A stretch of DNA of 64,000 bases. Origin: Patescibacteria group bacterium (lineage in GTDB: Bacteria > Patescibacteriota > Doudnabacteria > UBA920). Made by a program: the position numbers and the translations under genes. The stretch is taken from NCBI GenBank assembly GCA_036726225.1, contig DAIMCS010000005.1:3808-67807 (forward strand), read 5' to 3'. Of the stretch, positions 7,816-63,388 are shown piece by piece. Numbering within the stretch: position 1 is the first letter of the stretch; each line of letters starts with the position of its first letter. The notes beneath the pieces are model-generated. The model was not told the origin of the DNA and made no database searches. It saw only the letters and a list, made by a program, of their open reading frames with translations.

Positions 7816-7848
7816 CCCCTCCCTAGCCCTCCCCAAACTTGGGGAGGG
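7816..7848. repeat. GC-rich palindromic mini-repeat, family 1 (CCCTCCC...GGGGAGGG), copy a; supplies the SD for the PEPC gene
   Basis: cccctccctagccctccccaaacttggggaggg matches the copies at 10203, 14579, 62964 and 63354. GGGGAGGG lies 8 nt upstream of ATG 7857. Confidence 0.6.
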
Positions 7849-9620: not shown

Positions 9621-10604
9621 ATGAAACTCCTAATAGTCGGTTCAGTCGCATACGATTCCATAAAAACGCCTTTTGGCAAGGCTAATAAAACCCTAGGCGG
9701 CAGCGCCACGTATTTTTCTTTGGCCGCGAGCTTTTTTACCAAACCTTCTCTGGTAGCTGTAGTTGGGCAGGATTTTAAAGATGAAGAAGTATTTAAACGC
9801 CTGGGGATAAACATTAGTGGGTTGGAAAAACAACCAGGCAAAACTTTTGCCTGGGGAGGGGAATATAGTTTTGATTTAAACTCCAGGAAGACTTTGTTTA
9901 CTCATTTGAATGTGTTTGAAAATTTTAAGCCAAAATTATCATCGGATCACAAAAAATCAAAATTTGTTTTTTTGGGCAACATCCACCCATCCCTTCAGCT
10001 GGATGTTTTAAAGCAGGTTAATGCGCCTAAATTTGTTGGGCTGGATACTATGAATTTGTGGATAGAAAAAACTTTAAAAGATTTGAAAACCGTTTTAAAA
10101 AAAGTTGATATTTTAATAATAAACGATTCAGAAGCGCGGGAGTTATCGCGGGAACATAATTTGCTGAAAGGCGCTAAAAAAATTCTGTCGCTAATGCAAT
10201 CACCCTCCCCTAGCCCCTCCCATCAAGGGAGGGGAACCAAAAACATTCCCTCCCCTAGAGGGGGAGGGTTAGGGAGGGGTGAAAAAATTGTGATCATCAA
10301 ACGCGGCGAATTCGGTTTGCTCATGTTCCAAAAAGGAAACATTTTCCATCTTCCCGGCTATCCGCTTGAAGATGTGGTTGACCCCACCGGTGCGGGCGAC
10401 AGCTTTGCCGGCGGGTTTTTTGGCTATTTGGCCAAGACCGATGATATTTCCTGGCCAAACCTAAAAAAAGCATGCGTCGCAGGCTCGGTTATGGCTTCTT
10501 TTTGTGTGGAAAAATTAGGGACTAAAAGGCTATTAGAAATTAAAAGCTTAGACATAACCCAAAGGCTAAAAGATTTTAAAACATTGACTCATTTTGAAAT
10601 TTAG
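9621..10604 (+). CDS. PfkB-family carbohydrate kinase (ribokinase-like) carrying an in-frame repeat-derived insertion
   Basis: DPTGAGDSFAGGF anion-hole motif. GC-rich repeat family 1 at 10203-10282 is in frame and encodes SPSPSPSHQGRG...GGGLGRGEK. Confidence 0.75.
   Translation: MKLLIVGSVAYDSIKTPFGKANKTLGGSATYFSLAASFFTKPSLVAVVGQDFKDEEVFKRLGINISGLEKQPGKTFAWGGEYSFDLNSRKTLFTHLNVFENFKPKLSSDHKKSKFVFLGNIHPSLQLDVLKQVNAPKFVGLDTMNLWIEKTLKDLKTVLKKVDILIINDSEARELSREHNLLKGAKKILSLMQSPSPSPSHQGRGTKNIPSPRGGGLGRGEKIVIIKRGEFGLLMFQKGNIFHLPGYPLEDVVDPTGAGDSFAGGFFGYLAKTDDISWPNLKKACVAGSVMASFCVEKLGTKRLLEIKSLDITQRLKDFKTLTHFEI
10203..10282. repeat. GC-rich palindromic repeat family 1, copy b (two tandem units) inside the PfkB coding sequence
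   Basis: ccctcccctagcccctcccatcaagggaggggaa followed by ccctcccctagagggggagggttagggaggggtg. Matches 14579-14614 almost base for base. Confidence 0.7.
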
Positions 10605-14513: not shown

Positions 14514-14616
14514 CCCTCCCCCTTGCCTGCCTACCGCAGGCAGGTGGGGAGGGCAAGGGAGGGGGTAAAAGCATCCGCCACCCTCCCCTAACCCCTCCCA
14601 TCCAGGGAGGGGAATT
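14514..14616. repeat. GC-rich palindromic repeat family 1, copy c (composite, two hairpins) between convergent genes
   Basis: ccctcccccttgcctgcctaccgcaggcaggtggggaggg... then accctcccctaacccctcccatccagggaggggaa. Confidence 0.7.
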
Positions 14617-17073: not shown

Positions 17074-18624
17074 CTAGCTTGTCATATTCTTGGGGCGTAG
17101 CCAAGCGGTAAGGCACGGGCCTTTGAAGCCTGCATTCCCAGGTTCGATCCCTGGCGCCCCAGCCAAGACAAAACTTAGGTTAGTTTTAGAGAAATTTTTT
17201 CGTGCGACGCAGAGCGTCGCCCATTGTTTTACGGGGGATTCTTCAACTTTTTTATTTCGCAAAATCAGGTTCGAGCCGAAGATTTTTTGGAGGGAGGATT
17301 TTTTGGAGGGGAGGTCGTCTCCTTTTGCTATTTCGTCTAGCGTTGAAGCGTCCTTTATCCACTCTCGCATAGGTTCGAGCCACAGACTTCCCCCTCTTTG
17401 CGACTTGGCCAGAACTTCCTCAACCGATCTCTTTTCGGACATAGCCTCTCGCTTCTTGGCGAGGTAGGTTTCTCGGTCTATGTCCTGTTCAACAAAGAGG
17501 TCGGTAAGGCGGTCTATCTTGGCGTTAAAGACGCTTAATCGCTCCCGTAAGCTGTGGACTAAGGTTGCCGTAGTCTTGGAGCTACCTTTCTCGTCCTCGT
17601 CTGCGAGAGCCAATAACCCTTGCGTCCAATCGCTCGGCATTGCGTAATGTGTGAGTATTTCGGATAGGTCGGCGGCGAGGACTTCTTCTCTCACAAAAGG
17701 TTGAGAGCAACGAGCCGCCGATTTTTTTGTACAGCGATAGTAGATGTGGCCTTTCTGCTCCTCTGCGGTTATGCCCATACCGCACTCCCCGCAACGCAAA
17801 AGCCCACAAAAGGCTTTCGGTTCTTTATCTTTTCTCATTGGATGTCCACGACGGACAATTACGATCTGAACTTTATCAAAAAGGTGTTTGTCTATGAGTG
17901 GCGTATGTTTGCCCTCGTACATTTCGCCAGCGTAGCGGAAATGTCCGTAGTAAAAAGGATTAACGAGAATAAATCTTATTCTGTCTTTATGTATGGCGTT
18001 GCCATTTAAACTCTTAACCCCGTTTTCAAAAAGGAATGTAGAAATATCTTCAAGACGAGAGTTGCCTTTAGCGTAAAGCTCAAAGGCGGCTCTGATAAAT
18101 TTCGCTTTCTTCCGATCAACGACTATCGTCTTTGCTCGCACATCATTGAGGTAGCCAACGGGAGCAGTGCCGGGAAACTGTCCGAGCCGTGCCTTATGAT
18201 GTAGCCCTCGGCTTGTATTGGAGCTTAGGTCACGGATAAATTGGTTAGCCATACCAAACTCAACCGACATCATAAGTACATTGTCGTTTGAGAGATGGCT
18301 TCTGTCGTGCGTTTGAATACGCTGAATCGTCCCCTGTTGGAGTAGCCAACTGATCTGTCCGCCGTCCACGGGATTACGAGCCAAGCGATCTAGCTTCCAA
18401 CAAATAATGCCCTGTGCCTCGCCAGTCTGTATGCGTAGGAGCATATCGTTAAAGATCGGGCGACCGGGCATTTTTGCAGTTCGCTTTTCTACAAATTCGG
18501 CCGCAACTTCTAAGCCCTCGCTTTTCGCAAGCGAACGAAGTTCGTCTAATTGACCTTCGATGGAGAGGACTTGTTTATCCTCGACATCAGTAGATTTTCT
18601 AGCGTAAAGAAAGTATCTATTCAT
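17074..18624 (-). CDS. Large serine recombinase (integrase/resolvase family)
   Basis: N-terminal YARKSTD...Q catalytic Ser motif. Recombinase domain. CxxC...C zinc ribbon and coiled coil. ATG at 18624 (MNRYFLYARKST); the track start at 18702 is upstream. The 3' end reads across attL into the tRNA. Confidence 0.85.
   Translation of the reverse strand: MNRYFLYARKSTDVEDKQVLSIEGQLDELRSLAKSEGLEVAAEFVEKRTAKMPGRPIFNDMLLRIQTGEAQGIICWKLDRLARNPVDGGQISWLLQQGTIQRIQTHDRSHLSNDNVLMMSVEFGMANQFIRDLSSNTSRGLHHKARLGQFPGTAPVGYLNDVRAKTIVVDRKKAKFIRAAFELYAKGNSRLEDISTFLFENGVKSLNGNAIHKDRIRFILVNPFYYGHFRYAGEMYEGKHTPLIDKHLFDKVQIVIVRRGHPMRKDKEPKAFCGLLRCGECGMGITAEEQKGHIYYRCTKKSAARCSQPFVREEVLAADLSEILTHYAMPSDWTQGLLALADEDEKGSSKTTATLVHSLRERLSVFNAKIDRLTDLFVEQDIDRETYLAKKREAMSEKRSVEEVLAKSQRGGSLWLEPMREWIKDASTLDEIAKGDDLPSKKSSLQKIFGSNLILRNKKVEESPVKQWATLCVARKNFSKTNLSFVLAGAPGIEPGNAGFKGPCLTAWLRPKNMTS
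17091..17165 (+). tRNA. tRNA-Gln (anticodon UUG)
   Basis: 75 nt. Near-identical in arms to E. coli tRNA-Gln (TGGGG...GCCAAGCGGTAAGGCA...TTCGAnTCC...CCCCAGCCA). Anticodon loop CUUUGAA. Encoded CCA. Confidence 0.85.
17162..17317. repeat. IR-A (left terminal repeat of the element, about 156 bp)
   Basis: Reverse-complement match to 24641-24805, with one roughly 30-bp divergent patch. Confidence 0.8.
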
Positions 18625-18684
18625 AGTTGTAGTATACCACAACGGATGGTTTAAAACACAACTTTCAGCTATAATGGGATAAAT

Positions 18685-18891
18685 ATGAAAAGTGAAGCCC
18701 AAAAATTAGGCGATAATCTAAAACGAATAAGAACAGAGAAAGATATATCGCAGGGAGATATTGCACGAGCCTTAGAAGTGGATAAGAGTTTTGTCAGTAA
18801 TATAGAAAACGGCAAGACTAACCCGACACTTGCGACGATTGCAAAGATAGCAAAGGCAATCGGTGTTTCGGTTGATGAGTTATTAAAGTAA
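18685..18891 (+). CDS. XRE-family HTH transcriptional regulator
   Basis: Classic HTH_3: ISQGDIARALEVDKSFVSNIENG. Confidence 0.8.
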   Translation: MKSEAQKLGDNLKRIRTEKDISQGDIARALEVDKSFVSNIENGKTNPTLATIAKIAKAIGVSVDELLK

Positions 18892-18896
18892 AAATT

Positions 18897-20429
18897 ATGG
18901 CGACTTTAAATTGGATAGGAAAAGAAGCAGTAGTGAATCACGATAAAGAAGTGCCTTTTAAACTGCTCCAAAAAGTGCCGAGTGCTTCGGTGGGTAAGGA
19001 ATCAAAAAACCTTATCATTCACGGAGATAATCTTGAAGCTCTAAAGGCACTTATACCTTTTTATAAAAGTAAGGTGAAGTGCATTTATATTGATCCACCT
19101 TACAACACAGGCAACGAGGGTTGGGTATATAACGACAAAGTTAATTCTCCCAAAATCCAAGAATGGATTAAGAAGGTTGTTGGACGAGAGGGAGAAGATT
19201 TGACCCGCCACGATAAATGGATATGTATGATGTATCCAAGAATGAAGTTGCTACGCGACTTACTTGCAAACGATGGTGTAATTTTCGTAAGTATTGATGA
19301 CAACGAACAGCACTATCTAAGAATGGTTATGGACGAGATTTTTGGCGAAAAAAACTTTGTTGCTGACTTCATTTGGAATCACAGGAAATCAGGTCAAAAT
19401 GATATTGATGTATCTTTGTCTCATAATTATACGCTCTGTTATGCAAAAAAAAGAGCTGGACTCTTTTTGAATCGTCTCGCTATTGATGAAGGAAAGTTTT
19501 CTAATCCAGATAGCGATCCACGGGGCGATTGGGTTGCCGACCCTATGGACGCCCCCGCAATCCGAGAAAATTTAATGTATCCAATCATTAACCCAAATAC
19601 GAAACAAACATTTTTACCCCCTGTTGGGAGACATTGGCGATTTACTAAGGAAAAATACGAACAAGCGTTGAAGGATAATAGAATTGTTTTCGGGAAAACT
19701 GGCAAGTCCAAACCACAATTCAAACGCTTTAAAAGCGAAGCAGAGGAAAAAGGCATAAATGTTTTTACTATTTGGGACGATGTAGGAACTGCAACAGAAG
19801 GAACAAAAGAAATAATGGAGCTTTTTGGTGGAAAAAAAATCTTTGATACTCCTAAGCCAACTTCGTTTATTAAGAAAATTATTAAAATTGCTACGAAAGA
19901 TAATTCAATCGTATTGGATTCTTTTGCTGGTTCTGGGACAACTGGACACGCCGTTTTGGATTTAAATAAAGAAGATGGAATCAAACGCAGTTTTATTTTA
20001 GTAGAAATGGAAAATGATGTTGCTAAGAAAATTACCGCCGAGCGTATAAAGAGGGCTATCAAAAAGTATAAATATGATGACGGCTTTGAATATTGCGAAC
20101 TAGCCAAACCGCTTTTCAATGAGAAAGGGCAAATCAATGAGCAATGCACATATGGAGAACTTGCTACTTATATTTATTTTACCGAGACGCGAACAAATGC
20201 GGAAAAGAAGACTATCAAGTCGCCATTCATAGGAGAAAGTGGAGGCGTTTCTTACTACCTTATTTATGAAGGCAGAGATAAGAACGATCTCACTCGTTCA
20301 GCCCTTACGAAGTTGAAAATAAAGAAGCCAGCCGTAGTTTATGCGGATCGCTGTTTGGTGGACGAAGATGAGTTAAGAGAAAAAGGGATTGTATTCAAAC
20401 AAATCCCATACGAGATAAAAGTTTACTAA
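18897..20429 (+). CDS. Type III restriction-modification methyltransferase (Mod, N6-adenine, beta class)
   Basis: DPPYN motif IV precedes FAGSGTTG motif I (permuted order). The adjacent Res helicase-nuclease supports the call. Confidence 0.8.
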   Translation: MATLNWIGKEAVVNHDKEVPFKLLQKVPSASVGKESKNLIIHGDNLEALKALIPFYKSKVKCIYIDPPYNTGNEGWVYNDKVNSPKIQEWIKKVVGREGEDLTRHDKWICMMYPRMKLLRDLLANDGVIFVSIDDNEQHYLRMVMDEIFGEKNFVADFIWNHRKSGQNDIDVSLSHNYTLCYAKKRAGLFLNRLAIDEGKFSNPDSDPRGDWVADPMDAPAIRENLMYPIINPNTKQTFLPPVGRHWRFTKEKYEQALKDNRIVFGKTGKSKPQFKRFKSEAEEKGINVFTIWDDVGTATEGTKEIMELFGGKKIFDTPKPTSFIKKIIKIATKDNSIVLDSFAGSGTTGHAVLDLNKEDGIKRSFILVEMENDVAKKITAERIKRAIKKYKYDDGFEYCELAKPLFNEKGQINEQCTYGELATYIYFTETRTNAEKKTIKSPFIGESGGVSYYLIYEGRDKNDLTRSALTKLKIKKPAVVYADRCLVDEDELREKGIVFKQIPYEIKVY

Positions 20430-20430
20430 T

Positions 20431-22704
20431 ATGAAACTAAAACGCTACCAAGAAAACGCAATAGAAAAACTGGAAGAGTTTTTAGCGTTGCTCAAAAAGC
20501 AAAAGCCAAAACTTGCTTTCTATGAATTGACCGAAGAAAAATATAATGCCGAGTGGTTCGGTGATGTGCCTTTTGTTTGTATACGCATACCGACTGGTGG
20601 CGGAAAAACACTCGTCGGCTGTAAGTCAGTTGAACGGATAATGTCTATCGCATTACAGCACAAAATGGATACGGGTATTGTGATGTGGTTCGTGCCGTCC
20701 GATTCAATAAAGACGCAGACACTAAAAAAGTTTAGAGATTTGAAAGACTACCACTATGAAATGCTCAACGATTCTTTTGATACTAAGTTCAAAGTCTTTT
20801 CTAACGAGGAAGCACTTACCATTACGCCCGAAGATGTAAGAAATAATCTTTGTATTGTAGTCGCCAGTTTAGACGCTTTCCGTAAAGATCAGAAGATACA
20901 AAATAAATACAAGGTTTACAAAGAGAACGGGTCATTGATGGATCATTTCCAAAACCTTAAAGATGATTCGGCTCTTGAAAAAGATAAAGCGGGAACAGTC
21001 GTAAGTTCGTTAGCGAATGTCGTTCGTAAAAATAACCCACTCATTGTGATAGACGAAGGTCACCATACGCAAACAGAGCTATCAGTAGATATGCTTAAAG
21101 GACTTAGACCCTCTTTCATTATTGAGTTCACGGCTACGCCAAGAGACGGGAGCAATGTGCTTGTTCATACAAGTGCTTCGGAATTGAAAATTGAGGAGAT
21201 GGTAAAGATTCCTATTGTGCTTGAAAGTCGGACACAATGGGAACAGGTAGTCGCTGACGGAATAGCAAAGCGTGAGGAGCTTGAAAAACGAGCTAAGAAA
21301 CTTAAAGGCGAGTACATCCGCCCAATAGTTTTGCTTCAAGCCCAACCGAAAAGCAAAGTTAAAGCGACAATAACGATAGAGCAACTCAAACAGATGTTGC
21401 TTGATAAAAAAATTCCTGAAGAACAAATAAAAATAAAGACTTCGGAAGCTGATGAATTAGAAGGAATTGATTTGTTCTCTAAGAAATGTGAGGTGCGATA
21501 TATTCTCACAGTAAACGCACTTGCAGAAGGTTGGGACTGCTCCTTCGCTTATGTGCTTATTTCTGTTGCGAACTTAGGAGCAAGAATAGCAGTAGAGCAG
21601 ATTATCGGACGTGTTATCAGAATGCCTAACGCTCGCCGCAAAGAAGACGAAGCAATGAATCGCAGTTATGTATTTGCTTCTTCAGTAGATTTTAACGAGG
21701 CGGCGGACAAGGTTATCAAGGGACTTGTGGATAACGGATACAGCAAGAACGACCTTATTAGTGTTGCTGACGAGAAAGACTACTCCGATCCGTTAGAAGC
21801 GAAGAAGGCAATCAAAAAAGATTTGAAAGTGCCGATGATGACGCTCGGCAAAGACAAACTTTCCTTTGAAGACCTCTTGGGTGAGGACTTCAAATTAGCA
21901 AAACAGGACGCAGACTTTGATTTTAAAATCCATTATGACTTTGACGGGCAAGCAACGATAGATATTACGGAAGATGATGAGTGGCTACAAGGCAAACAGT
22001 TGAGCTTGCCGTATCAGTATCTTGAAGGCAATCACTCCGTTGAGGAATTAGCGTCTTGGCTTGATAAGAAGCTCCGCTTCCCAATGCTCAACCCCGACGA
22101 CAAAGCCGTCTTTATTGAAAGGGCTGTTCAAACGCAGATAAAGAAAAAGCGTAAACTCGCTGAATTATCGGTGAATAGATATTTACTCGCCGATCGCCTA
22201 AGTGTGGTGATAAATGAAATTCTTGAATTGTATACGAAAAAGATTTTTAACGGCTTGATGGCAAAAAAGAGCATTACTCTTGGTCTATTTGATTCGTATC
22301 CGACAACGATCACTCTCAAGTCGCCTGTGCCGAGGGTGTTTAATAAAAACCTATACGAGAGAATAGATGGTATCAACGGCGAGGAACGCGCGTTTGTAGA
22401 GCGTATTGACTTGGGGGCTTTGGATAATATTGAATACTGGGTGAGAAACCGAGAAAAAGTAGACCCGTTCTACATTCAAGGTTGGCGTAAAGGAAAGTTT
22501 TATCCCGACTTTGTGGCTATAACCAAGAAAGGCAACATCGTTGCCCTTGAATGGAAGGGAGAAGATCGCGTAAGCAACGAGGATACCGCCTACAAAGTAG
22601 AAATAGGAAATATTTGGGAAAAACTTGGTCGTGGTAAAACCTATTTCTTTCTCGTTCATAATGGGAATACCGAAGAAGTTTTAGGTAAACTGCGAAACCT
22701 ATAA
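20431..22704 (+). CDS. Type III restriction enzyme Res subunit (SF2 helicase + PD-(D/E)xK nuclease)
   Basis: Walker A PTGGGKT. DEGH box VIDEGHH. C-terminal YPDF...EWK nuclease motif. Start codon overlaps the mod stop. Confidence 0.8.
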   Translation: MKLKRYQENAIEKLEEFLALLKKQKPKLAFYELTEEKYNAEWFGDVPFVCIRIPTGGGKTLVGCKSVERIMSIALQHKMDTGIVMWFVPSDSIKTQTLKKFRDLKDYHYEMLNDSFDTKFKVFSNEEALTITPEDVRNNLCIVVASLDAFRKDQKIQNKYKVYKENGSLMDHFQNLKDDSALEKDKAGTVVSSLANVVRKNNPLIVIDEGHHTQTELSVDMLKGLRPSFIIEFTATPRDGSNVLVHTSASELKIEEMVKIPIVLESRTQWEQVVADGIAKREELEKRAKKLKGEYIRPIVLLQAQPKSKVKATITIEQLKQMLLDKKIPEEQIKIKTSEADELEGIDLFSKKCEVRYILTVNALAEGWDCSFAYVLISVANLGARIAVEQIIGRVIRMPNARRKEDEAMNRSYVFASSVDFNEAADKVIKGLVDNGYSKNDLISVADEKDYSDPLEAKKAIKKDLKVPMMTLGKDKLSFEDLLGEDFKLAKQDADFDFKIHYDFDGQATIDITEDDEWLQGKQLSLPYQYLEGNHSVEELASWLDKKLRFPMLNPDDKAVFIERAVQTQIKKKRKLAELSVNRYLLADRLSVVINEILELYTKKIFNGLMAKKSITLGLFDSYPTTITLKSPVPRVFNKNLYERIDGINGEERAFVERIDLGALDNIEYWVRNREKVDPFYIQGWRKGKFYPDFVAITKKGNIVALEWKGEDRVSNEDTAYKVEIGNIWEKLGRGKTYFFLVHNGNTEEVLGKLRNL

Positions 22705-22710
22705 AAAGAT

Positions 22711-24558
22711 ATGAGACTACTCAATTTTAGAATTAAAAATTATAAGTCCATCACCGATTCAAAAGATGTATTCCTCTCCGAGTTGGATAACATTACTATC
22801 CTCGCGGGACAAAATGAATCTGGTAAAAGTTCTATTTTACGGGCTTTGAATGATTTTGAAAGCGGAGAATTTGAAAAAGATTCAGTTCCTTTTTCACTTG
22901 AAAACGAAACTCAACAATCCGTGAGTTGCACTTACCGGATTGAGGATCAAGACAACCTAATTGAGCTTTTGACCGATTCAGTCATTGAAGATTTTTCTCT
23001 TAAATTACAGGAGGGTGAACAGATTTTGGATAAAGAGAAAATTGCGAGAATAAAAAACTTTACCCTAAGCCGCATAAGTGAAAAAGACGCTGTTCGTCTT
23101 GAGTTAGATGACGCAACTTTCAATATTTTTAAATCCGCCGTTCTTGAAAAACCGGCAATACCAAATCCAACTGCCGAGCAAGAACAGGGTGATGTTGTGA
23201 AAGAAAAGTATATCGCTGTTTCTGAAGATATGAATAGTAAAGTTGCCGAAATATTTTGGGCAAATTGCCCAAAGGTTGTTTACTTTGATGATTTTTGTGA
23301 CTTACTACCGGACAAGATTTTTATTTCAGCTCTAAAAAATAAGCAAAAAGATACACAGGGATATAAAGCCGTGAGGAACTTAGAGAATATTCTCAAAACG
23401 GATTTTGTATCAAAGGACGGAGAAGTTGATTCCCGACGAAGAACCAAAGAGACGCGAGAAAACGATACTCTTTCAATTGATTTCCAAAATGATTGGGGTC
23501 AAAGGATACACGGAGAGAACAAGGTTATCGTCAAGTATAATTTTGAGAAGCGTGTCGGTGATAATGAAAATGGTTCTTATGTTAATTTCTTTGTAGAAAC
23601 GAAGGAGGGGCAACCTCTACCACCTAAGCAAAGGAGTAAAGGATTGATTTGGTTTCTATCTCTTTGGCTTGAACTCAAAGCACAAAATGCTTCCGGTAAT
23701 GATTTAATTCTTCTATTAGATGAGCCAGATCAACATTTACATGTTAAAGCTCAAAAAGATATTTTAAAACTTATAAATAAACTTGCGACAACTACCGAAG
23801 TTGAAGAATCAGAAGCAGAGCGACGCGGCGATCAAATAATCTACGCTACTCATTCGCCCTACCTCATTGAGATAGAGCGTTTAAATCGCGTAAAGTTGAT
23901 AATCAATTCAGAAAAGCAAGGAACTCAAGTTGAAGATATTGCGACAAGCAAGATAAATACCGAGTTCAAAAAAGACGCCCTACAACCTATTGTGGACGCA
24001 ATAGGGTTAAGTGTTAATGAGTTTTCTTCGTTAGACAAAAACAATATTATTCTTGAGGGGATTTCGGATTTTTATTATTTCTCTGCTTTTAAGAAGCTCT
24101 TACAACGCACCGAAGAGTATAAGTTTATTCCGGGAATCGGCGTTAGGCAGATAAATAATCTAATATCTCTTGCTATCGGCTACGATCTCAACTGGTTGGT
24201 TATCATTGATGATGATCCAACTATTGGCGGGAAAGATTCAAAGAAGAAATATGACGAGATAAAAGACCATGTTTTTGATGGTGATTCAGCAAAAACGGAC
24301 AAGAAGGTAAATATTTTGAGCGGAATCGTTGGAGTAGAAAACATGTTTACGATTGACGACTTAAAATTAGTTGATTCAAAGGTTAATACTAATACCGATA
24401 TGGTTAAGGTTGTGGGGAAAAGGAGAAAAGTCTTGTTTGCTCAAATGTTTTATGAAAAAGTCTTGAGTGGAGAGATTACAAAGGATAAGCTATCACAATC
24501 TTCCATCAATAACTTTACCCAAGCCTTTGATTTTATTGACAGAGGTATGACCATCTAA
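22711..24558 (+). CDS. OLD-family ABC-ATPase/Toprim nuclease (class 1 OLD or fused PARIS-like AriAB)
   Basis: GQNESGKSS Walker A. LLLDEPDQHLH Walker B/D-loop. C-terminal Toprim with EGISD and IIDDD motifs. No adjacent helicase. Confidence 0.7.
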   Translation: MRLLNFRIKNYKSITDSKDVFLSELDNITILAGQNESGKSSILRALNDFESGEFEKDSVPFSLENETQQSVSCTYRIEDQDNLIELLTDSVIEDFSLKLQEGEQILDKEKIARIKNFTLSRISEKDAVRLELDDATFNIFKSAVLEKPAIPNPTAEQEQGDVVKEKYIAVSEDMNSKVAEIFWANCPKVVYFDDFCDLLPDKIFISALKNKQKDTQGYKAVRNLENILKTDFVSKDGEVDSRRRTKETRENDTLSIDFQNDWGQRIHGENKVIVKYNFEKRVGDNENGSYVNFFVETKEGQPLPPKQRSKGLIWFLSLWLELKAQNASGNDLILLLDEPDQHLHVKAQKDILKLINKLATTTEVEESEAERRGDQIIYATHSPYLIEIERLNRVKLIINSEKQGTQVEDIATSKINTEFKKDALQPIVDAIGLSVNEFSSLDKNNIILEGISDFYYFSAFKKLLQRTEEYKFIPGIGVRQINNLISLAIGYDLNWLVIIDDDPTIGGKDSKKKYDEIKDHVFDGDSAKTDKKVNILSGIVGVENMFTIDDLKLVDSKVNTNTDMVKVVGKRRKVLFAQMFYEKVLSGEITKDKLSQSSINNFTQAFDFIDRGMTI

Positions 24559-24563
24559 GGGAG

Positions 24564-24597
24564 TTTGCCGATCTTCCAAGACGGCAAAAGTTTTTAA
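24564..24597 (+). terminator. Putative terminator of the XRE-mod-res-OLD operon
   Basis: ttgccg...cggcaa hairpin followed by aagttttta. Confidence 0.35.
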
Positions 24598-24640
24598 CAC
24601 GCGCACGGGTAGGGTGGGGCAAGTGTTATGTCTTGCGTGA

Positions 24641-24805
24641 CGACCTCCCCTCCAAAAAATCCTCCCTCCAAAAATCTTCGGCTTTGTATTCTTGAATCTG
24701 TATTTTGCGAAATAAAAAAGTTGAAGAATCCCCCGTAAAACAATGGGCGACGCTCTGCGTCGCACGAAAAAATTTCTCTAAAACTAACCTAAGTTTTGTC
24801 TTGGC
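24641..24805. repeat. IR-A' (internal inverted copy of the left end)
   Basis: Reverse complement of 17162-17317. Shares the 5-bp GCCAA core with IR-B. Confidence 0.8.
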
Positions 24806-25091
24806 TCGTCTTTATAGTACCGCTCGAACGATTTTCATGGAAGATTTGGGCTAGTTTACCTAGTCACGCGGGTAGTCACTCGCTCCTTGCCCGAATGACT
24901 AGGGAGTATTGCTGAAAGCCCTAGTGAACACGGGGTCTTTCATCAATACCATCTCACAAAAAAGCAGTCCTACTTCACTCCGCTCCTCCTAGCGTCCGTC
25001 GCTCCGTGAAAATGTCACGGGTTCGTGTCTGGTGGCTCGGCCTTTGCTTCCGTCCTGCTAATTCTTTTTGCTCGTTGGTGGGGGGGGGTAA
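24801..25091. repeat. IR-B (internal inverted copy of the right end, 291 bp)
   Basis: Perfect reverse-complement match to 31010-31299, except G9 versus C8 in the homopolymer tract. Confidence 0.85.
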
Positions 25092-40071: not shown

Positions 40072-40080
40072 TCTTTATTT

Positions 40081-40166
40081 CCTTCTCCCTTTGGGAGAAG
40101 GTGGTCCGCCTCTGGCGGACCGGATGAGGGTTGGGAGAGATGTCGCCGTAGGCGACAGAGAGGGCT
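40081..40166. repeat. GC-rich palindromic repeat family 2 (CCTTCTCCCTTTGGGAGAAGG + GGTCCG...CGGACC), copy f
   Basis: Matches 47534-47590 with a changed loop. Contains three stem-loops. Confidence 0.7.
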
Positions 40167-45898: not shown

Positions 45899-47662
45899 TT
45901 AGGATGCCTTTACATCAACTATTCTTAGCTTAAGGTTTTTGCTTCCGTTCCATCCGTCTTCTATTAATTCGCAGGCTATGTCCACGTTAGTAATTTGTAA
46001 TGGTTTAAAGTTAAATGCTATGGCAGAAAAGGTGGAATTATTTAACCCTAAATTTAGCTGCAGGTGCTGACTTTGCGTCCCCACTTGCCGCTGCGACAAA
46101 ACCTTGGCTGCCTTAACCAAAAATTTGGGCTTAGGGTTACCAACTCCAAAAGGTTCTAAATTTTTAATTTGTTCCAAATTTTCCACATTTATGTCAAAAG
46201 CCTGAAGCTCGGCCTCCAGCTCTAAAACTTTATCTGCGTTAGTTTCATTAATGTGCAAATCTGCATGCTCTAAAATTTTTTGGTAAAACAAATCGAACTT
46301 GGAAATTTCTACCGTCAAACCGGCAGCTTGTTTGTGTCCGCCAAACTTCACTATGTGTTCAGAACTGAATTTTAAGGCCTCAATTAAGTTAAATTCCCCG
46401 GCGGTCCTGGCCGAACCTGTGCACAAATTTTCCGTCTGCTCCAGCACAATTACGGGCTTAAAATACTCCTCCGCAAGCCTGCCGGCCACAAGCCCCATTA
46501 CACCCTTAGGCCAGCCCTGCCCGACCATAACCAGGACTTTCCTGTCCATTAGCATTATGGCTTTTTCCTTAGCCTCGCTTAAAACGGTCTGGGTGAGCTG
46601 CTGGCGGCGTTGGTTTATTTGTTCCAGCCTGGCTGCTTTTTCTTTTGCCAAAAAAGGATTTTGCTCCAGCAGCAAATCTAAAGCAATCCCCGCGTGCTCA
46701 AGCCGGCCGGCGGCATTCAAGCGGGGCGCAATTACAAAACCCAACGTATAAGTGTCAGGCAGCTTTTGGCTAAAATCCAACCCACCGGCCTGGGCCAAAG
46801 CTTTCAGGCCAATCCACTTTGTCTTAGCCAAAACTTTAAGCCCGTATTTTACAAGGATACGGTTTTCTCCAAGCAAACTATGGCAGTCAGCCACAGTGCC
46901 TATTGCCACAAGATCCAGCAGCCACTTCTCGTATCCTTCGGCATATTTTGGAACCTGGAGTTTGGTTCTTGGATCTTTCAAAATAGCACACGCAAGCTTA
47001 AAAGCCACACCCACCCCTGTAATTTCCCTGTACGGATAACTATCGTTACCATTTTTGGGATTAATTAACGCATAAGCGTCCGGCTCCTGCCCAATTATTT
47101 CGTGGTGATCGGTTATTATAAAATCTATGCCGCGGGCTTTGCACCAATCCGCCGCATCTATAGAGTTAGTTCCGCAATCCACGGTAATAATTATTTTTGC
47201 CCCATTTTGGGCAATTTTTTCCAAAGCTTCAATGTTTACCCCGTAGCCTTCGGAAAAACGGTCCGGGATGTAGCTGTCGGCTTCCACGTCTAAAAAATTA
47301 AAAGTTTGCCTAAGTACCGCATTGGCCGTGACCGCGTCTGCGTCGTAGTCGCCGTAAATGCAAATTTTTTCGCGGTGGTTAATTGCCTGCCAAATCCTGT
47401 CCACGGCCTGTTGCATATCCTTAAAAAGAAAAGGGCTGTGTAACTTTTCATAAGTCGGGTTTAAAAAATCGGCTACTTGATCTTTATTGCTTAGTCCGCG
47501 GTTATAAAGCAGCTGCGATAGCAGCTCCAAATTTCCTTCTCCCTTTGGGAGAAGGTGGTCCGTCGACTGACGGACCGGATGAGGGGTCTGTAACAAAAAA
47601 TTTACGATCTCTATCCCTTTTTCCTGAGGAATTTGCGATTTTAGTTTCCAAAGTTTTGGCAT
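45899..47662 (-). CDS. recJ: Single-stranded-DNA-specific exonuclease RecJ; N-terminus contains an in-frame family-2 repeat
   Basis: DHH motifs DCGTNS and TDHHE plus a DHHA1 domain. The repeat at 47534-47590 encodes ...HLLPKGEGNLELL. Confidence 0.8.
   Translation of the reverse strand: MPKLWKLKSQIPQEKGIEIVNFLLQTPHPVRQSTDHLLPKGEGNLELLSQLLYNRGLSNKDQVADFLNPTYEKLHSPFLFKDMQQAVDRIWQAINHREKICIYGDYDADAVTANAVLRQTFNFLDVEADSYIPDRFSEGYGVNIEALEKIAQNGAKIIITVDCGTNSIDAADWCKARGIDFIITDHHEIIGQEPDAYALINPKNGNDSYPYREITGVGVAFKLACAILKDPRTKLQVPKYAEGYEKWLLDLVAIGTVADCHSLLGENRILVKYGLKVLAKTKWIGLKALAQAGGLDFSQKLPDTYTLGFVIAPRLNAAGRLEHAGIALDLLLEQNPFLAKEKAARLEQINQRRQQLTQTVLSEAKEKAIMLMDRKVLVMVGQGWPKGVMGLVAGRLAEEYFKPVIVLEQTENLCTGSARTAGEFNLIEALKFSSEHIVKFGGHKQAAGLTVEISKFDLFYQKILEHADLHINETNADKVLELEAELQAFDINVENLEQIKNLEPFGVGNPKPKFLVKAAKVLSQRQVGTQSQHLQLNLGLNNSTFSAIAFNFKPLQITNVDIACELIEDGWNGSKNLKLRIVDVKAS
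47534..47590. repeat. GC-rich palindromic repeat family 2, copy g (inside the recJ 5' coding region)
   Basis: ccttctccctttgggagaaggtggtccgtcgactgacggaccggatgagggg. Confidence 0.7.
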
Positions 47663-49383: not shown

Positions 49384-50634
49384 CTAAGAACTCATTAAAT
49401 CCGAGATTTCCATGAGGCGATTGTACTTGCATACCCGCTCACCCCTACTCGGCCCAACTTTTATCCATTCACTCCCCACACAAACCCCCAAGTCTACCAA
49501 AAACGTGTCATTAGTTTCGCCACCGCCCCTATGTGAAGGGATGGTAAAAAATCCGTGCTGGTTTGCAAGCACGCAACAATCTACGGTTTCGGTAACCGTG
49601 CCCGCCTGGTTAAGTTTTATTAAAATGGAGCTCGCCACCTTTTTATTTATTGCCTCCTGCAAAAGCTCCACACTGGTAACAGTTAAGTCGTCCGCCACAA
49701 TTTTTACTTTTCCCGCGCCCTCCAAAAGTTTTGGCCAGCTTTCCCAGTCAAATTCCGAAAGACCGTCCTCTAAAGCAACAATCGGGTATTTTTTAAACCA
49801 TCCCACATATTTTTCTATAAGCTGCGAAGAACTTAACAACTGGTTTTCAATTGCTAAATTATATTGCGAATCTTTGTAAAATTCAGAAGCGGCAGCATCT
49901 ATATAAATTGCAGCATCATTAACCGGTTTATAGCCGGCCCGGCTTATTGCCTCGGTTATGAATTTAAGGGGCAGTTCGTTGTCACCTATGCCGCCGGGCG
50001 CAAATGCCCCTTCGTTGCCCACATTAGTGGAAAAATTATTCTCTTTTAATATTTTTTTAAGCGCCTGGTAAATTTCTTCCATCATCCTAATATTTTGTGC
50101 GGCTGGTTGGTTTTTGGTAACAGCTAAAATGTATTCCTGCAAGTCTGTGGAATTGTCAGCGTGCCTGCCGCCTTCAATAAAAACAGCAAGCGGCTTGGGC
50201 AGCTTAAGGGCTGTCCCCAAATTGTAAGCCTTGGATAAATACGCATACAATTCTAAATTTTCAGATGCCGCAGCAGCCCTACAGACTGCCATAGACACTC
50301 CCAAAATAGCGTTTGCGCCCAAATTTTTCTTGTTTTCCGTACCGTCGGCATTAATAAGGATTTTATCAACCGCACGCTGGTCTAAAGAATCTTTGCCTAT
50401 TAACAGCGGGGAAATTTTCTCGTTCACATTTTCCACAGCTTTAAGCATACCCTTGCCGTTGTAGCGACTTTTGTCCCCGTCAAACAAAACAAATGCCTCC
50501 TTGCTACCCGCAGATGCGCCGTAGGAAACAGACGCAATGCCAATTGCCCCCGACTCCAACTCCACTTTCACCTCCACACTCGGCTCGCCTCCGCTCGCCA
50601 AAATTTCCCTCGCTCGTATTTTCTTGATTTTCAT
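49384..50634 (-). CDS. eno: Enolase
   Basis: N-terminus IKKIRAREILASGGEPSVEV. Confidence 0.9.
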   Translation of the reverse strand: MKIKKIRAREILASGGEPSVEVKVELESGAIGIASVSYGASAGSKEAFVLFDGDKSRYNGKGMLKAVENVNEKISPLLIGKDSLDQRAVDKILINADGTENKKNLGANAILGVSMAVCRAAAASENLELYAYLSKAYNLGTALKLPKPLAVFIEGGRHADNSTDLQEYILAVTKNQPAAQNIRMMEEIYQALKKILKENNFSTNVGNEGAFAPGGIGDNELPLKFITEAISRAGYKPVNDAAIYIDAAASEFYKDSQYNLAIENQLLSSSQLIEKYVGWFKKYPIVALEDGLSEFDWESWPKLLEGAGKVKIVADDLTVTSVELLQEAINKKVASSILIKLNQAGTVTETVDCCVLANQHGFFTIPSHRGGGETNDTFLVDLGVCVGSEWIKVGPSRGERVCKYNRLMEISDLMSS

Positions 50635-50647
50635 AGATGGTTTTTAA

Positions 50648-50676
50648 TTGGTGTAGGGCCCGCCAATGGCGGGCCG
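50648..50676. repeat. REP-like hairpin with a GTAG-type head (left flank of the RAYT gene)
   Basis: tgtagggcccgccaatggcgggccg. Confidence 0.6.
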
Positions 50677-50677
50677 T

Positions 50678-51178
50678 TTATTTAATTATAGCAAATTTTT
50701 GATTATATTCGTCCAATTCCCACTGCTTAGGATTATTGACTATATATTCGCGGATTCGCGTTAAATCCTCTTGAGAACGAATAACATGATCATAAAATGA
50801 ATGTTGCCATTCAAAATTTGAATTTATATTGCGGATAGCTTTAGAAACAACATTTTTATATGAGCCTATAATTTTAGAAAGACTTACCTGTTTGTAGGGC
50901 CGGCCATCGGCCGGCAGCTGTTTGATTATGACTATTCCGTGAATATGATTCGGCATAACGACAAAAACATCTAAGCCTACATTAGGGTAATGGTTGGGCA
51001 CTTCTTTCCAAAATTTTTCTGCAATTATACCCTGTTCATCCAGAACTACCAGATCATTTTTTACCTTCCCGAAACATTCTAATCGATTTTGAACGCAGAT
51101 CGTTACAAAATAATAACCGGGGGTTGTATAATCAAATTTTTGCAAACGATAAGAGCTTCTTTGCGGCAATTTATTCAT
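50678..51178 (-). CDS. REP-associated tyrosine transposase (IS200/IS605-family HUH, RAYT-like)
   Basis: HUH motif MPNHIHGIV. Size around 165 aa. Flanked by inverted REP hairpins. Confidence 0.7.
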   Translation of the reverse strand: MNKLPQRSSYRLQKFDYTTPGYYFVTICVQNRLECFGKVKNDLVVLDEQGIIAEKFWKEVPNHYPNVGLDVFVVMPNHIHGIVIIKQLPADGRPYKQVSLSKIIGSYKNVVSKAIRNINSNFEWQHSFYDHVIRSQEDLTRIREYIVNNPKQWELDEYNQKFAIIK

Positions 51179-51193
51179 TTGTTCCAATTTAAA

Positions 51194-51218
51194 CGGCCAG
51201 GCAATGCCTGGCCCTACA
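51194..51218. repeat. REP-like hairpin (right flank of the RAYT gene, inverted relative to the left one)
   Basis: cggccaggcaatgcctggccctaca. Its reverse complement begins tgtagggcc. Confidence 0.6.
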
Positions 51219-51236
51219 ATATACTAAATCTCAACT

Positions 51237-52457
51237 TTATTTCAAAGCTTCAACGCCGGGGAGTTTTTTGCCGGCCAAGTATTCAAGCATTGCCCCGCCG
51301 CCGGTGGAGACGTGGTCTATGTGGCTAAATTGGTGAGCCTGGCGAATGGCATCAACAGTGTCGCCACCGCCGGCAACAACGAAGGCATGACCTTTGCCGC
51401 GGCCGCCAATAAGACGGCAGAGCGCTTTGGTAGCCGTGTCAAAAGGTTTTTTTTCAAACAGGCCCAAAGGACCGCTCCACACAATAGTTTTAGCTAACTT
51501 TAATTCTTTAGCAAAAAGTAAAATAGTTTTGGGACCTGCGTCTAAAACAATTTCTTTTTTGCCTATTTCATGGGGCGCGCAAACCCGAATGGAATTTTTG
51601 TCCATTTCCGCATTTGCCACAACAACATCTACAGGCAACACAAGTTTTCCTTTAAAATTCTTTTCTATTTGAAAAGCGGTCTTCATTTCGCCTTCTTCAA
51701 TTTTTGAAAGGCCAATTTCCAGTCCCTTAGTCTTAAAAATTAAATTCGCTACTCCCCCGCCCACCAGAATTTTGTCAGCCTTTGTGCCCAAATTTTCCAG
51801 AGCACCAATTTTTTCCGACAGCTTAATCCCGCCCGTCATTACCACAAACGGATGCTTTACAGTTTTTAAAACGGCGTCAAGCGATTTTATTTCTTTTTCC
51901 AAAAGCAAACCGCAGTAACTGGGCAAATGCTTTGCCACGCCGGTAACCGAAACAGAAGCGTGGTGATCCACCCCAAAAGCGTCGTTAACGTAAACTTCGG
52001 CTAAATCTGACATATGCTTGGCAAAACTTTCGTCGTTGTCTTCTTCCTGCTTGTAAAAACGCATATTCTCCAAAAATATGACATCTTGGTCGCCCATGTT
52101 TTTAACTTGCGCTCTATGCGCGCTTTCCAGCAAATTTCCGGTATAAAAAATTAAATGCCCTCCGCCTTCGGGAATTTTTGCGTCAGTCGCAAAAAATTTT
52201 AAGCCCAAAGAGTGGGCCAGTTTTTCCGCCACCGGCTTAAAGCTTAACTCTTCCTTCCACTGGCCTTTTGGACGTCCCAAGTGCCCACAAATAATAAGTT
52301 TGTTGTCATCATCTATAAGTTTTTTAATCGTCGGCAAACTTTCATGAATTCTAAAATCGTCTGTCACCTTACCGTTTTCCACGGGACAATTCAAATCCGG
52401 CCGTAGCAGCACGGTTTTATTTTTGACTGACGATGTTCTTAAATACTTAATTGCCAT
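51237..52457 (-). CDS. pgk: Phosphoglycerate kinase
   Basis: 406 aa. N-terminal VLLRPDLNCP motif (the PGK RxD-N-P signature) and a C-terminal GGGD...GG glycine-rich region. Confidence 0.9.
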   Translation of the reverse strand: MAIKYLRTSSVKNKTVLLRPDLNCPVENGKVTDDFRIHESLPTIKKLIDDDNKLIICGHLGRPKGQWKEELSFKPVAEKLAHSLGLKFFATDAKIPEGGGHLIFYTGNLLESAHRAQVKNMGDQDVIFLENMRFYKQEEDNDESFAKHMSDLAEVYVNDAFGVDHHASVSVTGVAKHLPSYCGLLLEKEIKSLDAVLKTVKHPFVVMTGGIKLSEKIGALENLGTKADKILVGGGVANLIFKTKGLEIGLSKIEEGEMKTAFQIEKNFKGKLVLPVDVVVANAEMDKNSIRVCAPHEIGKKEIVLDAGPKTILLFAKELKLAKTIVWSGPLGLFEKKPFDTATKALCRLIGGRGKGHAFVVAGGGDTVDAIRQAHQFSHIDHVSTGGGAMLEYLAGKKLPGVEALK

Positions 52458-62962: not shown

Positions 62963-63351
62963 ACTCCCCTCCCCTTATTAATAAGGGGAGGTTGGGAGGG
63001 GATATTCTTTATTTCCTGGATTATCCTCTCAACAACTCCTTCTAAATTGTTTAATACTTCGTTATCGTAAAACCTCAGTACACTTATATTTTTGGAATTA
63101 AAAAATCGGGTTCTATTTTTGTCATAAGTAATGTTGTCTTTTTGCATATGCTGACTACCGTCTAACTCTACTGCCAACCTTAAAGACGGACAATAAAAGT
63201 CGGCTATAAATTTTCCCACACTATATTGCCTTGTAAATTTAAAACCCATAATTTGATTTCTTCTTAATACTGACCACATTTTTCTTTCGGCATCTGTGGA
63301 ATTATTTCTCAATTCTTTTCTGAAACCTTTTAAAATTTTATCCTGATACAT
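62959..63351 (-). CDS. DUF559 (Vsr-like endonuclease domain) protein, selfish-type insertion
   Basis: FYCPSLRLAVELDGSQH pattern of DUF559. Flanked by GC palindromes at both ends. Confidence 0.65.
   Translation of the reverse strand: MYQDKILKGFRKELRNNSTDAERKMWSVLRRNQIMGFKFTRQYSVGKFIADFYCPSLRLAVELDGSQHMQKDNITYDKNRTRFFNSKNISVLRFYDNEVLNNLEGVVERIIQEIKNIPSQPPLINKGRGV
62964..63002. repeat. GC-rich palindromic repeat family 1, copy d (encodes the DUF559 C-terminus; supplies the SD for ruvX)
   Basis: ctcccctccccttattaataaggggaggttgggaggggat. Confidence 0.6.
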
Positions 63352-63353
63352 AT

Positions 63354-63388
63354 CACCCCCTAACCCCCTCTTATTATAAGAGGGGGAA
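63354..63388. repeat. GC-rich palindromic repeat family 1, copy e (upstream of the DUF559 start)
   Basis: caccccctaaccccctcttattataagagggggaa. Confidence 0.55.

Follow-up and report, generated by a model that had tools for sequence, protein, structure and literature searches.

Results

A RAYT gene with three hairpin units between pgk and eno

We describe here a 567-bp element in a 64,000-nucleotide stretch of the genome of a Patescibacteria group bacterium (GenBank assembly GCA_036726225.1, contig DAIMCS010000005.1, positions 3,808 to 67,807 of the forward strand). This whole stretch is referred to as the window, and all positions below are positions in it. The element lies between the glycolytic genes pgk and eno and comprises a gene for a tyrosine transposase of the kind associated with repetitive extragenic palindromes (REPs), a RAYT (also TnpA_REP), two REP hairpins that bracket the gene in inverted orientation, and a third REP hairpin in frame within the gene. 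The original prediction for this DNA had named each of these components. It was correct about the position of the RAYT, as gene order confirms, and all three hairpin units are present in the window sequence, 0 to 6 nt from where it had placed them.

The RAYT gene occupies positions 50678 to 51187 on the minus strand, an open reading frame (ORF) of 169 amino acids (aa) when read from the TTG at 51187; public gene calls start at the ATG at 51178 and give 166 aa. The 5′-flank REP (51190 to 51218, minus strand) lies upstream of the RAYT start and reads TGTAGGGCCAGGCATTGCCTGGCCGTTTA on the coding strand, with a GTAG foot at 51217 to 51214 and a stem-loop at 51213 to 51195. A gap of 18 nt separates it from the pgk stop, and 2 nt lie between its end and the TTG start (11 nt for the ATG). 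The 3′-flank REP (50652 to 50680, plus strand) reads TGTAGGGCCCGCCAATGGCGGGCCGTTTA on the plus strand, with its GTAG foot at 50653 to 50656 and its stem-loop at 50657 to 50675. On the coding strand, its TAAAC tail overlaps the TAA stop of the RAYT (50678 to 50680), and its CTACA foot faces eno, the start codon of which is 17 nt further on. The two flank units form an inverted repeat pair with 29-nt arms that are 83% complementary, which together with their folding bears out their description as inverted, GTAG-footed REP hairpins. Canonical REPs are recognized by a 5′ GT[AG]G at the hairpin foot, G-C pairs at the bottom of the stem, and a location within ±1000 nt of the gene (Quentin et al. 2018); both flank units have these features and lie 0 to 2 nt from the ends of the ORF (11 nt from the ATG start).

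The intragenic REP unit (50893 to 50915, plus strand) reads TGTAGGGCCGGCCATCGGCCGGC and is a direct repeat of the 3′-flank unit, with 83% identity (19 of 23 positions, including 9 of 9 in the TGTAGGGCC head). It is oriented as the 3′-flank REP and is single-footed, with the GTAG foot (50894 to 50897) on the non-coding (plus) strand and the stem-loop at 50899 to 50915. As had been predicted, the unit stands in frame in the ORF; it encodes P92-A-D-G-R-P-Y98, within the region L91-P-A-D-G-R-P-Y-K-Q100, and leaves the ORF intact.

Each unit, as single-stranded DNA (ssDNA), folds into a 7- to 8-bp GC hairpin directly after the GTAG(G) foot. Folding energies range from −9.5 kcal/mol for the intragenic unit to −10.1 kcal/mol for the 5′-flank REP (z, −3.7) and −11.3 kcal/mol for the 3′-flank REP (z, −3.2). 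Overall, z is about −3, and 0 to 1 of 200 shuffled sequences were as stable (0 to 3 of 200 when the coding-strand fold of the intragenic unit is counted). Of the 24 stem cells in an in-register alignment of the three units, 23 pair, and at two stem positions the units differ in both paired bases (C-G/A-T/G-C at one and C-G/G-C at the other). The string GTAGGGCC is found three times in the window, each time within the 567-bp element, and about 1.1 occurrences per window are expected; by this estimate, three copies within 570 bp are far beyond chance.

The site TTGAAA-16-TATATT at 51245 to 51218 on the minus strand resembles a promoter (10 of 12 matches). It runs over the pgk stop as far as the foot of the 5′-flank REP, and transcription from it would start approximately at the GTAG foot of that REP. 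In a scan for promoter and terminator consensus sequences, both flank hairpins were terminator-like, but match counts were not above the shuffled expectation. A search of Rfam with the region from 49 to 53 kb at an E value of ≤1 returned a spurious mir-84 match only, and the hairpins are covered by no known RNA family.

Assignment of the RAYT to subclass 2.4

The HUH motif of the protein, N80-H81-I82-H83 (50939 to 50950), lies in the sequence MPNHIHGIV (residues 78 to 86). W127-Q128 is also present, and Y148 (50744 to 50746) stands inside YIVNNP (Y148-I-V-N-N-P153), where N152 is a putative third metal ligand. H81, H83, G84, W127, Y148, and N152 are invariant in an alignment of 47 sequences, 90% or more of which also have N80. 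Homologs are numerous (4918 were found), and JGI annotates several as “REP element-mobilizing transposase RayT.”

Searched against the PDB, a profile of the alignment matched solely 4ER8, the TnpA_REP of Escherichia coli (E = 3e-5). An AlphaFold (AF2) model of the protein, with a predicted local distance difference test score (pLDDT) of 88.4 and a predicted template modeling score (pTM) of 0.81, also has 4ER8 as its best fold match (E = 4e-7; template modeling [TM] score, 0.61; root mean square deviation, 2.7 Å), followed by the IS608, ISDra2, and IS200 transposases. In the model, a strand (residues 81 to 88) is joined to a helix (residues 103 to 119) by a coil of reduced pLDDT (77; residues 89 to 102). 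The residues encoded by the intragenic REP make up most of this β3-αC linker, just past the HUH motif; the alignment is hypervariable directly after HGIxxI, consistent with the variable-length β3-αC insertion of subclass 2.4.

The subclass 2.4 TnpA_REP REPtrons correspond to RAYT Group 4 of Bertels et al. 2017 (Quentin, Siguier, Chandler & Fichant 2018, BMC Genomics 19:475). Class 2 is marked by the signature Y---NP and subclass 2.4 by NH[IFV]H/WQ/YIxNNP (Table 1, PMC6006769). Because the motif set NHIH/WQ/YIVNNP equals the published signature, we assign the gene on its motifs to RAYT/TnpA_REP subclass 2.4 (Bertels Group 4), that is, to the HUH/Y1 enzymes of the IS200 superfamily. To this extent the motifs and the 4ER8 fold bear out the original prediction, which had spoken of an IS200-like RAYT. 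IS200 proper (TnpA_IS200, subclass 1.1) was rejected on motifs (these are not DH[VI]H/Y[IV]ENQ), copy number in the window, context, and the presence of GTAG-footed hairpins.

A hairpin at the same site across the family

We surveyed 80 genomic loci of distant RAYT homologs (35 to 49% identity) from Omnitrophota, Bacteroidota, Cyanobacteria, Chloroflexota, Planctomycetota, Proteobacteria, the candidate phyla radiation (CPR; Patescibacteria-type), and others. The linker DNA was examined in 67 genes, with a hairpin score of ≥7 as the threshold and with 343 windows of equal length, taken elsewhere in these genes, as controls. A linker hairpin was present in 53 of the 67 homologs (79%) versus 18 of the 343 control coding sequence windows (5%). 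At least 10 perfect pairs were found in 29 of the 67 linkers, and many stems were perfect over 12 to 17 bp. GT[AG]G and/or C[TC]AC feet were carried by 42 of the 53 hairpins, 19 of which were double-footed. The hairpin is specific to a site, with its center 32 to 42 nt (interquartile range) past the HxHG codon; two hairpins are present in 12 of the loops. It is not tied to one reading frame: the foot falls in frame 0 in 24 cases and in frame 1 in 7, and never in the frame that yields a TAG stop. The number of internal hairpins (0 to 2), their orientation, and their frame vary among homologs, and about 20% of homologs have short, hairpin-free linkers with intact catalytic motifs. At the protein level, the peptides after HGIxxI in the alignment resemble translated palindromes (VGAxxxxAPT, CRGGSRTAPT, VETRHASSL, and GRP...RPY).

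Stem sequences vary by locus. The internal core matches a hairpin within 400 nt of its own gene at ≥85% in 22 of the 53 cases, versus 1.1% for matches to the flanks of other loci at the same level. The original prediction had raised the conservation of the internal segment among RAYT homologs as a check on whether it is an insertion, and the outcome is divided: the hairpin is conserved as a feature, and its sequence is not, tracking instead the REPs of each locus.

The closest CPR relatives, P0005, P0006, and P0008 (55 to 58% identical), share the layout of the window locus, with a 5′ REP, an internal REP, and a 3′ REP. The stem-loops of these relatives are identical; for example, tgtagtGCAGGCCAGTGGCCTGC occurs twice in L211, together with its inverse. 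L209 and L210/L211 are loci with 64%-identical RAYTs and a shared neighborhood, in which the RAYT is next to Peptidase_M48-LemA and recX lies upstream where the contig extends. Their internal REP has the same stem-loop but is inverted between them: of L209 and L210, one has the foot on the coding strand and the other on the non-coding strand, so that the peptides KKQATGLHYG and EPVVQASGLLL result. This opposite orientation implies replacement or flipping at one site.

As a separate observation, identical or near-identical REPs, such as GTAGAGACGTTGCATGCAACGTCTCTAC and GTAGGGGCGGTTCGCGAACCGCCCCTAC, recur in RAYT loci of distant taxa, the RAYTs of which are about 50 to 57% identical. One such set comprises L019, L043, and L044 (with the flanks of L045 and L059), and another comprises L024, L032, and L076 (with the flanks of L006 and L071). 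This recurrence across distant genomes suggests discrete, strongly constrained REP “types.”

Comparison with published systems

REPs inside the gene have already been described for subclass 2.4, and the segment in question is considered a peripheral loop that affects activity little (Quentin et al. 2018, PMC6006769). The window locus, with its unit at 50893 to 50915, has the same feature. The original prediction had called a REP inside a RAYT ORF unusual; this did not hold, because such REPs are published for subclass 2.4 and 79% of the 67 homologs carry one. We found nothing beyond the 2018 paper in the literature on subclass 2.4 or on RAYTs in Patescibacteria. A keyword search for in-gene REPs in Bertels et al. 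2017 and Di Nocera et al. 2013 gave no passage.

Besides its motifs, the window locus shares with subclass 2.4 REPtrons the variable β3-αC insertion, long flanking REPs with GT[AG]G feet, and a scattered phylogenetic distribution. Genes of the subclass have a low copy number, and the window has one copy in its 64 kb. It differs in several respects. Its host is Patescibacteria/Doudnabacteria-like, whereas the paper lists Cyanobacteria, Bacteroidetes, and “various phyla,” and its protein is short (169 aa, compared to a mean of 194). Its intragenic unit has one foot only, which lies on the non-coding strand, the three units are mutually diverged, and the gene sits within a string of glycolytic genes.

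The TnpA_REP of E. coli (YafM; 4ER8; subclass 2.2) resembles the window protein in fold, in the HUH motif with a single catalytic Tyr in Y---NP, and in having a gene flanked by GTAG-footed REPs. This enzyme binds the REP hairpin and GTAG foot on ssDNA and cleaves it (PMC3479197, PMC8266576), and it is solely for this subclass 2.2 enzyme that REP ssDNA binding and cleavage have been shown. In contrast to the window locus, its motifs are DHLH/WE/YIHYNP, its gene contains no REP, its identity to the window protein is 21%, and E. coli REPs are long, bulged, and present in hundreds of copies. The TnpA proteins of IS200/IS605 (IS608 and ISDra2; subclass 1.1) share the HUH/Y1 fold, the recognition of subterminal DNA hairpins, and the chemistry of ssDNA cleavage. 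However, they belong to true multicopy insertion sequences, often with tnpB, their motifs are DH[VI]H/Y[IV]ENQ, and their hairpins lack a GTAG foot, whereas the window element is single copy in the window, without tnpB, and syntenically fixed. In-frame intragenic palindromes are also known from GTAG/CGTC REPs and Rickettsia palindromic elements (Di Nocera et al. 2013, PMC3733652); these are likewise tolerated in loops and linkers and add about 8 to 10 aa each. Those repeats are scattered in unrelated genes at non-homologous sites. In contrast, the host gene of the window REP encodes the REP's own enzyme, and the site is constant across a protein subclass.

Genomic context of the RAYT

The gene order in the window is pfkB-gap-pgk-RAYT-eno-gpmI-recJ, with all genes co-oriented. 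The immediate neighbors are pgk (51237 to 52457, minus strand) and eno (49384 to 50634, minus strand); no tnpB adjoins the RAYT. A tblastn search found no second RAYT in the 64-kb window, and the gene is thus single copy there. The window PGK is closest to proteins of “Candidatus Doudnabacteria” and Patescibacteria, and a JGI metagenome contig is identical to the window sequence.

The closest RAYT homolog, P0002 (63% identical), comes from a 12.7-kb contig of another assembly (ENA ERZ1426827) and lies in the order gap-(PDDEXK_3)-pgk-RAYT-eno-gpmI-recJ-RNaseH-PEGA-mreB. Its loop reads ERPANGGPYRAPS, which at the peptide level gives PANGGPY compared to PADGRPY in the window, and its back-translation would allow a CCCGCC-AAT-GGCGGG-CCCTAC unit of the type that flanks the window gene. 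Relatives with 73 to 82% identical PGK have neither a RAYT nor GTAGGGCC hairpins. Between pgk and eno, L083, L085, L086, and L088 carry a Trp-repressor-like and an FAD-binding protein; HicB and a Trp-repressor-like protein; an ABC1 kinase and small ORFs; or lycopene cyclase, and the relative with lycopene cyclase in the slot has no eno there. In Doudnabacteria-like genomes, variable cargo occupies the pgk-eno junction, which holds a RAYT in the window and on the P0002 contig. Other CPR homologs have different neighbors: P0006 and P0008 lie between recX and Peptidase_M48-LemA, and P0005 lies next to Peptidase_M48. From these gene orders we read the window RAYT as an old, probably vertically kept resident of the pgk-eno slot rather than a recent insertion.

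Other repeats in the window

Two further hairpin families occur in the window. The first, at six sites (7827 to 7848, 10214 to 10234, 10248 to 10268, 14592 to 14612, 62968 to 62991, and 63364 to 63386), has the form CCCTAR-CCCCTCCC...GGGAGGGG, with a C/T-rich stem that often follows CCCTAG or CCCTAA, and it has no sequence relation to the GTAGGGCC units. The second is a double hairpin of about 55 nt, TTTCCTTCTCCCTTTGGGAGAAGG-T-GGTCCGYC...GRCGGACC-GGATGAGGG, in two copies that are about 85% identical (40078 to 40131 and 47532 to 47586). Its second hairpin is GTGG-footed, and the second copy lies in frame in the N terminus of the annotated recJ (...PHPVRQSTDHLLPKGEGNLE...). It is a second REP-like family without a cognate RAYT in the window. 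The original prediction had suggested a relation of the RAYT locus to other hairpin families in the window; we reject this link, as feet and stems differ and the window has no second RAYT.

Elsewhere in the window, a 105-nt perfect inverted repeat (17161 to 17265 and 24702 to 24806) and a 36-nt perfect pair (17284 to 17319 and 24639 to 24674) enclose about 7.4 kb. GC skew is positive in most of the enclosed DNA (about 18 to 25 kb) and past the right arm to about 28 kb, and it is negative in the rest of the window. The segment from 17161 to 24806 may be inverted or invertible, or it may be an assembly feature.

Discussion

We conclude that the element between pgk and eno is likely a subclass 2.4 REPtron, in an account that combines a mechanism for the enzyme, an origin for the internal REP, and an old vertical residence at the locus. 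The RAYT would be an HUH/Y1 ssDNA endonuclease, the gene for which has an inverted pair of its cognate GTAG-footed REP hairpins close on either side, with a third cognate REP in frame in the hypervariable β3-αC linker after the HUH motif. By analogy with E. coli TnpA_REP and IS608, the enzyme is predicted to bind the REP hairpin and GTAG foot on ssDNA, to cleave there, and to rejoin the strand nearby via Y148 of YIVNNP. The internal REP may then be a by-product of this activity, lodged at a permissive and probably preferred site in a surface loop, where it would be repeatedly re-templated, replaced, or flipped from adjacent REPs via strand transfer by the enzyme. It would survive as long as the frame is kept and the frame in which GTAG gives a TAG stop is avoided, and solely in-frame, stop-free versions would persist. 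On this last part, the origin of the internal REP as a re-templated by-product at a permissive loop site, we are more guarded, and we lean toward it by a little.

Several observations weigh against this account. There is little sign of an abundant pool of REPs from which the loop could be re-seeded, because no GTAGGGCC-type hairpin or GTAG-footed GC hairpin of the RAYT family occurs outside the element in 64 kb, and because only 7 of 56 family loci, taken with as much as ±10 kb of flanking DNA, have a copy of the internal core beyond 400 nt from the gene. This scarcity of extragenic copies agrees with the modest 16-mer abundance that PMC5581495 gives for Group 4. REP/REPIN families generally comprise many dispersed extragenic copies, usually arranged in inverted doublets (REPINs), and the window has three copies, all at the RAYT. 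A scan of metagenome contigs for GTAGGGCC-N11-GGCCGT was uninformative: at least 120 unrelated contigs matched, and among the 124 matches listed, 16 were hairpins, none of them tied to this organism. The three window units diverge mutually by 17 to 30%, so no recent homogenization is evident here. Binding and cleavage by a subclass 2.4 enzyme are extrapolated from other enzymes. Identical internal cores of 17 to 20 nt occur in homologs with 50 to 64% protein identity, for which third-position identity is 0.36 to 0.60 (near-saturated), and selection on the hairpin accounts for such fully identical cores between diverged homologs no less well than neutral turnover does. Finally, the window protein scores below the cutoffs of Pfam PF01797 (Y1_Tnp; 21.1 bits, with a cutoff of 23) and NCBIfam NF047646 (REP_Tyr_transpos; 59.6 bits, with a cutoff of 80). 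These are nevertheless its top and sole profile matches in Pfam and NCBIfam, precomputed PF01797 matches are present on many close homologs, and the cutoffs are model thresholds rather than defining features of subclass 2.4.

The hairpin in the linker could instead be a selected, self-referential cis-element of subclass 2.4, a reading that we regard as possible but on present evidence rather unlikely. In one variant it would be an autoregulatory or self-limiting site, at which the RAYT, or the hairpin itself in mRNA or ssDNA, limits RAYT expression; in another it would be a protected master copy, such that enzyme and substrate are co-inherited, REP specificity stays coupled, and extragenic REPs are re-seeded from it. 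Selection of this kind would account for the persistence of the hairpin across phyla, its persistence without nearby extragenic copies, and the conservation of its core above that of synonymous sites. A prevalence of 79% at one fixed site in many phyla is consistent with it, as are the many stems that are perfect over 12 to 17 bp, cores that remain 100% identical where synonymous sites of the homologs are near saturation, and the pairing that the diverged window units keep although both arms of the stem have changed. About half of the 56 family loci, moreover, have no similar extragenic copy within ±10 kb, which leaves the internal copy as the sole local one. Yet the hairpin-free homologs, about one in five, retain intact catalytic motifs, which argues that the hairpin is dispensable; its number, orientation, and frame vary; and the conservation of the core could reflect the recognition specificity of the enzyme acting on any copy.

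Two simpler explanations fare worse. The original prediction framed the locus as an IS200-like element inserted in a glycolytic operon, with the REP inside the ORF as a peculiarity, which would make it a recently transposed insertion sequence and the internal REP a one-off accident. The compact 567-bp size, the inverted hairpins at the boundaries, the almost exact filling of the pgk-eno spacer, and the absence of the element from relatives with 74 to 82% identical PGK would all suit such an event. We nonetheless consider it very improbable, as P0002 occupies the same pgk-eno slot with a loop peptide that a unit of this kind could encode, the RAYT is single copy in the window without an adjacent tnpB, and its motifs are those of subclass 2.4 and not of IS200. 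The contexts of homologs in other CPR lineages are likewise fixed, next to recX or Peptidase_M48-LemA, and the internal REP, lying in a linker that is hypervariable throughout the family, is a family-wide feature. The other explanation is that the loop simply encodes PADGRPY and resembles a REP by chance, which is conceivable for a unit of only 23 nt that lacks one foot and has a core, GGCCGGCC, that is self-complementary by composition. We give it almost no credence. The match to the flank unit, complete in the TGTAGGGCC head, and the confinement of GTAGGGCC to the element within 64 kb argue against coincidence, and cognate hairpins occupy the same site in 79% of homologs, versus 5% of controls, in different frames and orientations. 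The family survey, the matches of internal cores to their own flanks, and the differences in orientation refute chance resemblance.

As an instance, the subclass 2.4 REPtron described here is ordinary: it adds an example of the Patescibacteria/Doudnabacteria type to the RAYT subclass with in-gene REPs that was described in 2018. It indicates that a RAYT gene can be a stable resident inside a string of glycolytic genes. The wider question is why nearly a whole subclass of REP-processing enzymes retains, in frame and at one site, the hairpin that is its own substrate. As a compact, apparently low-copy locus with three REPs, the element offers a clean set of substrates with which recognition, cleavage, and possible autoregulation may be addressed.

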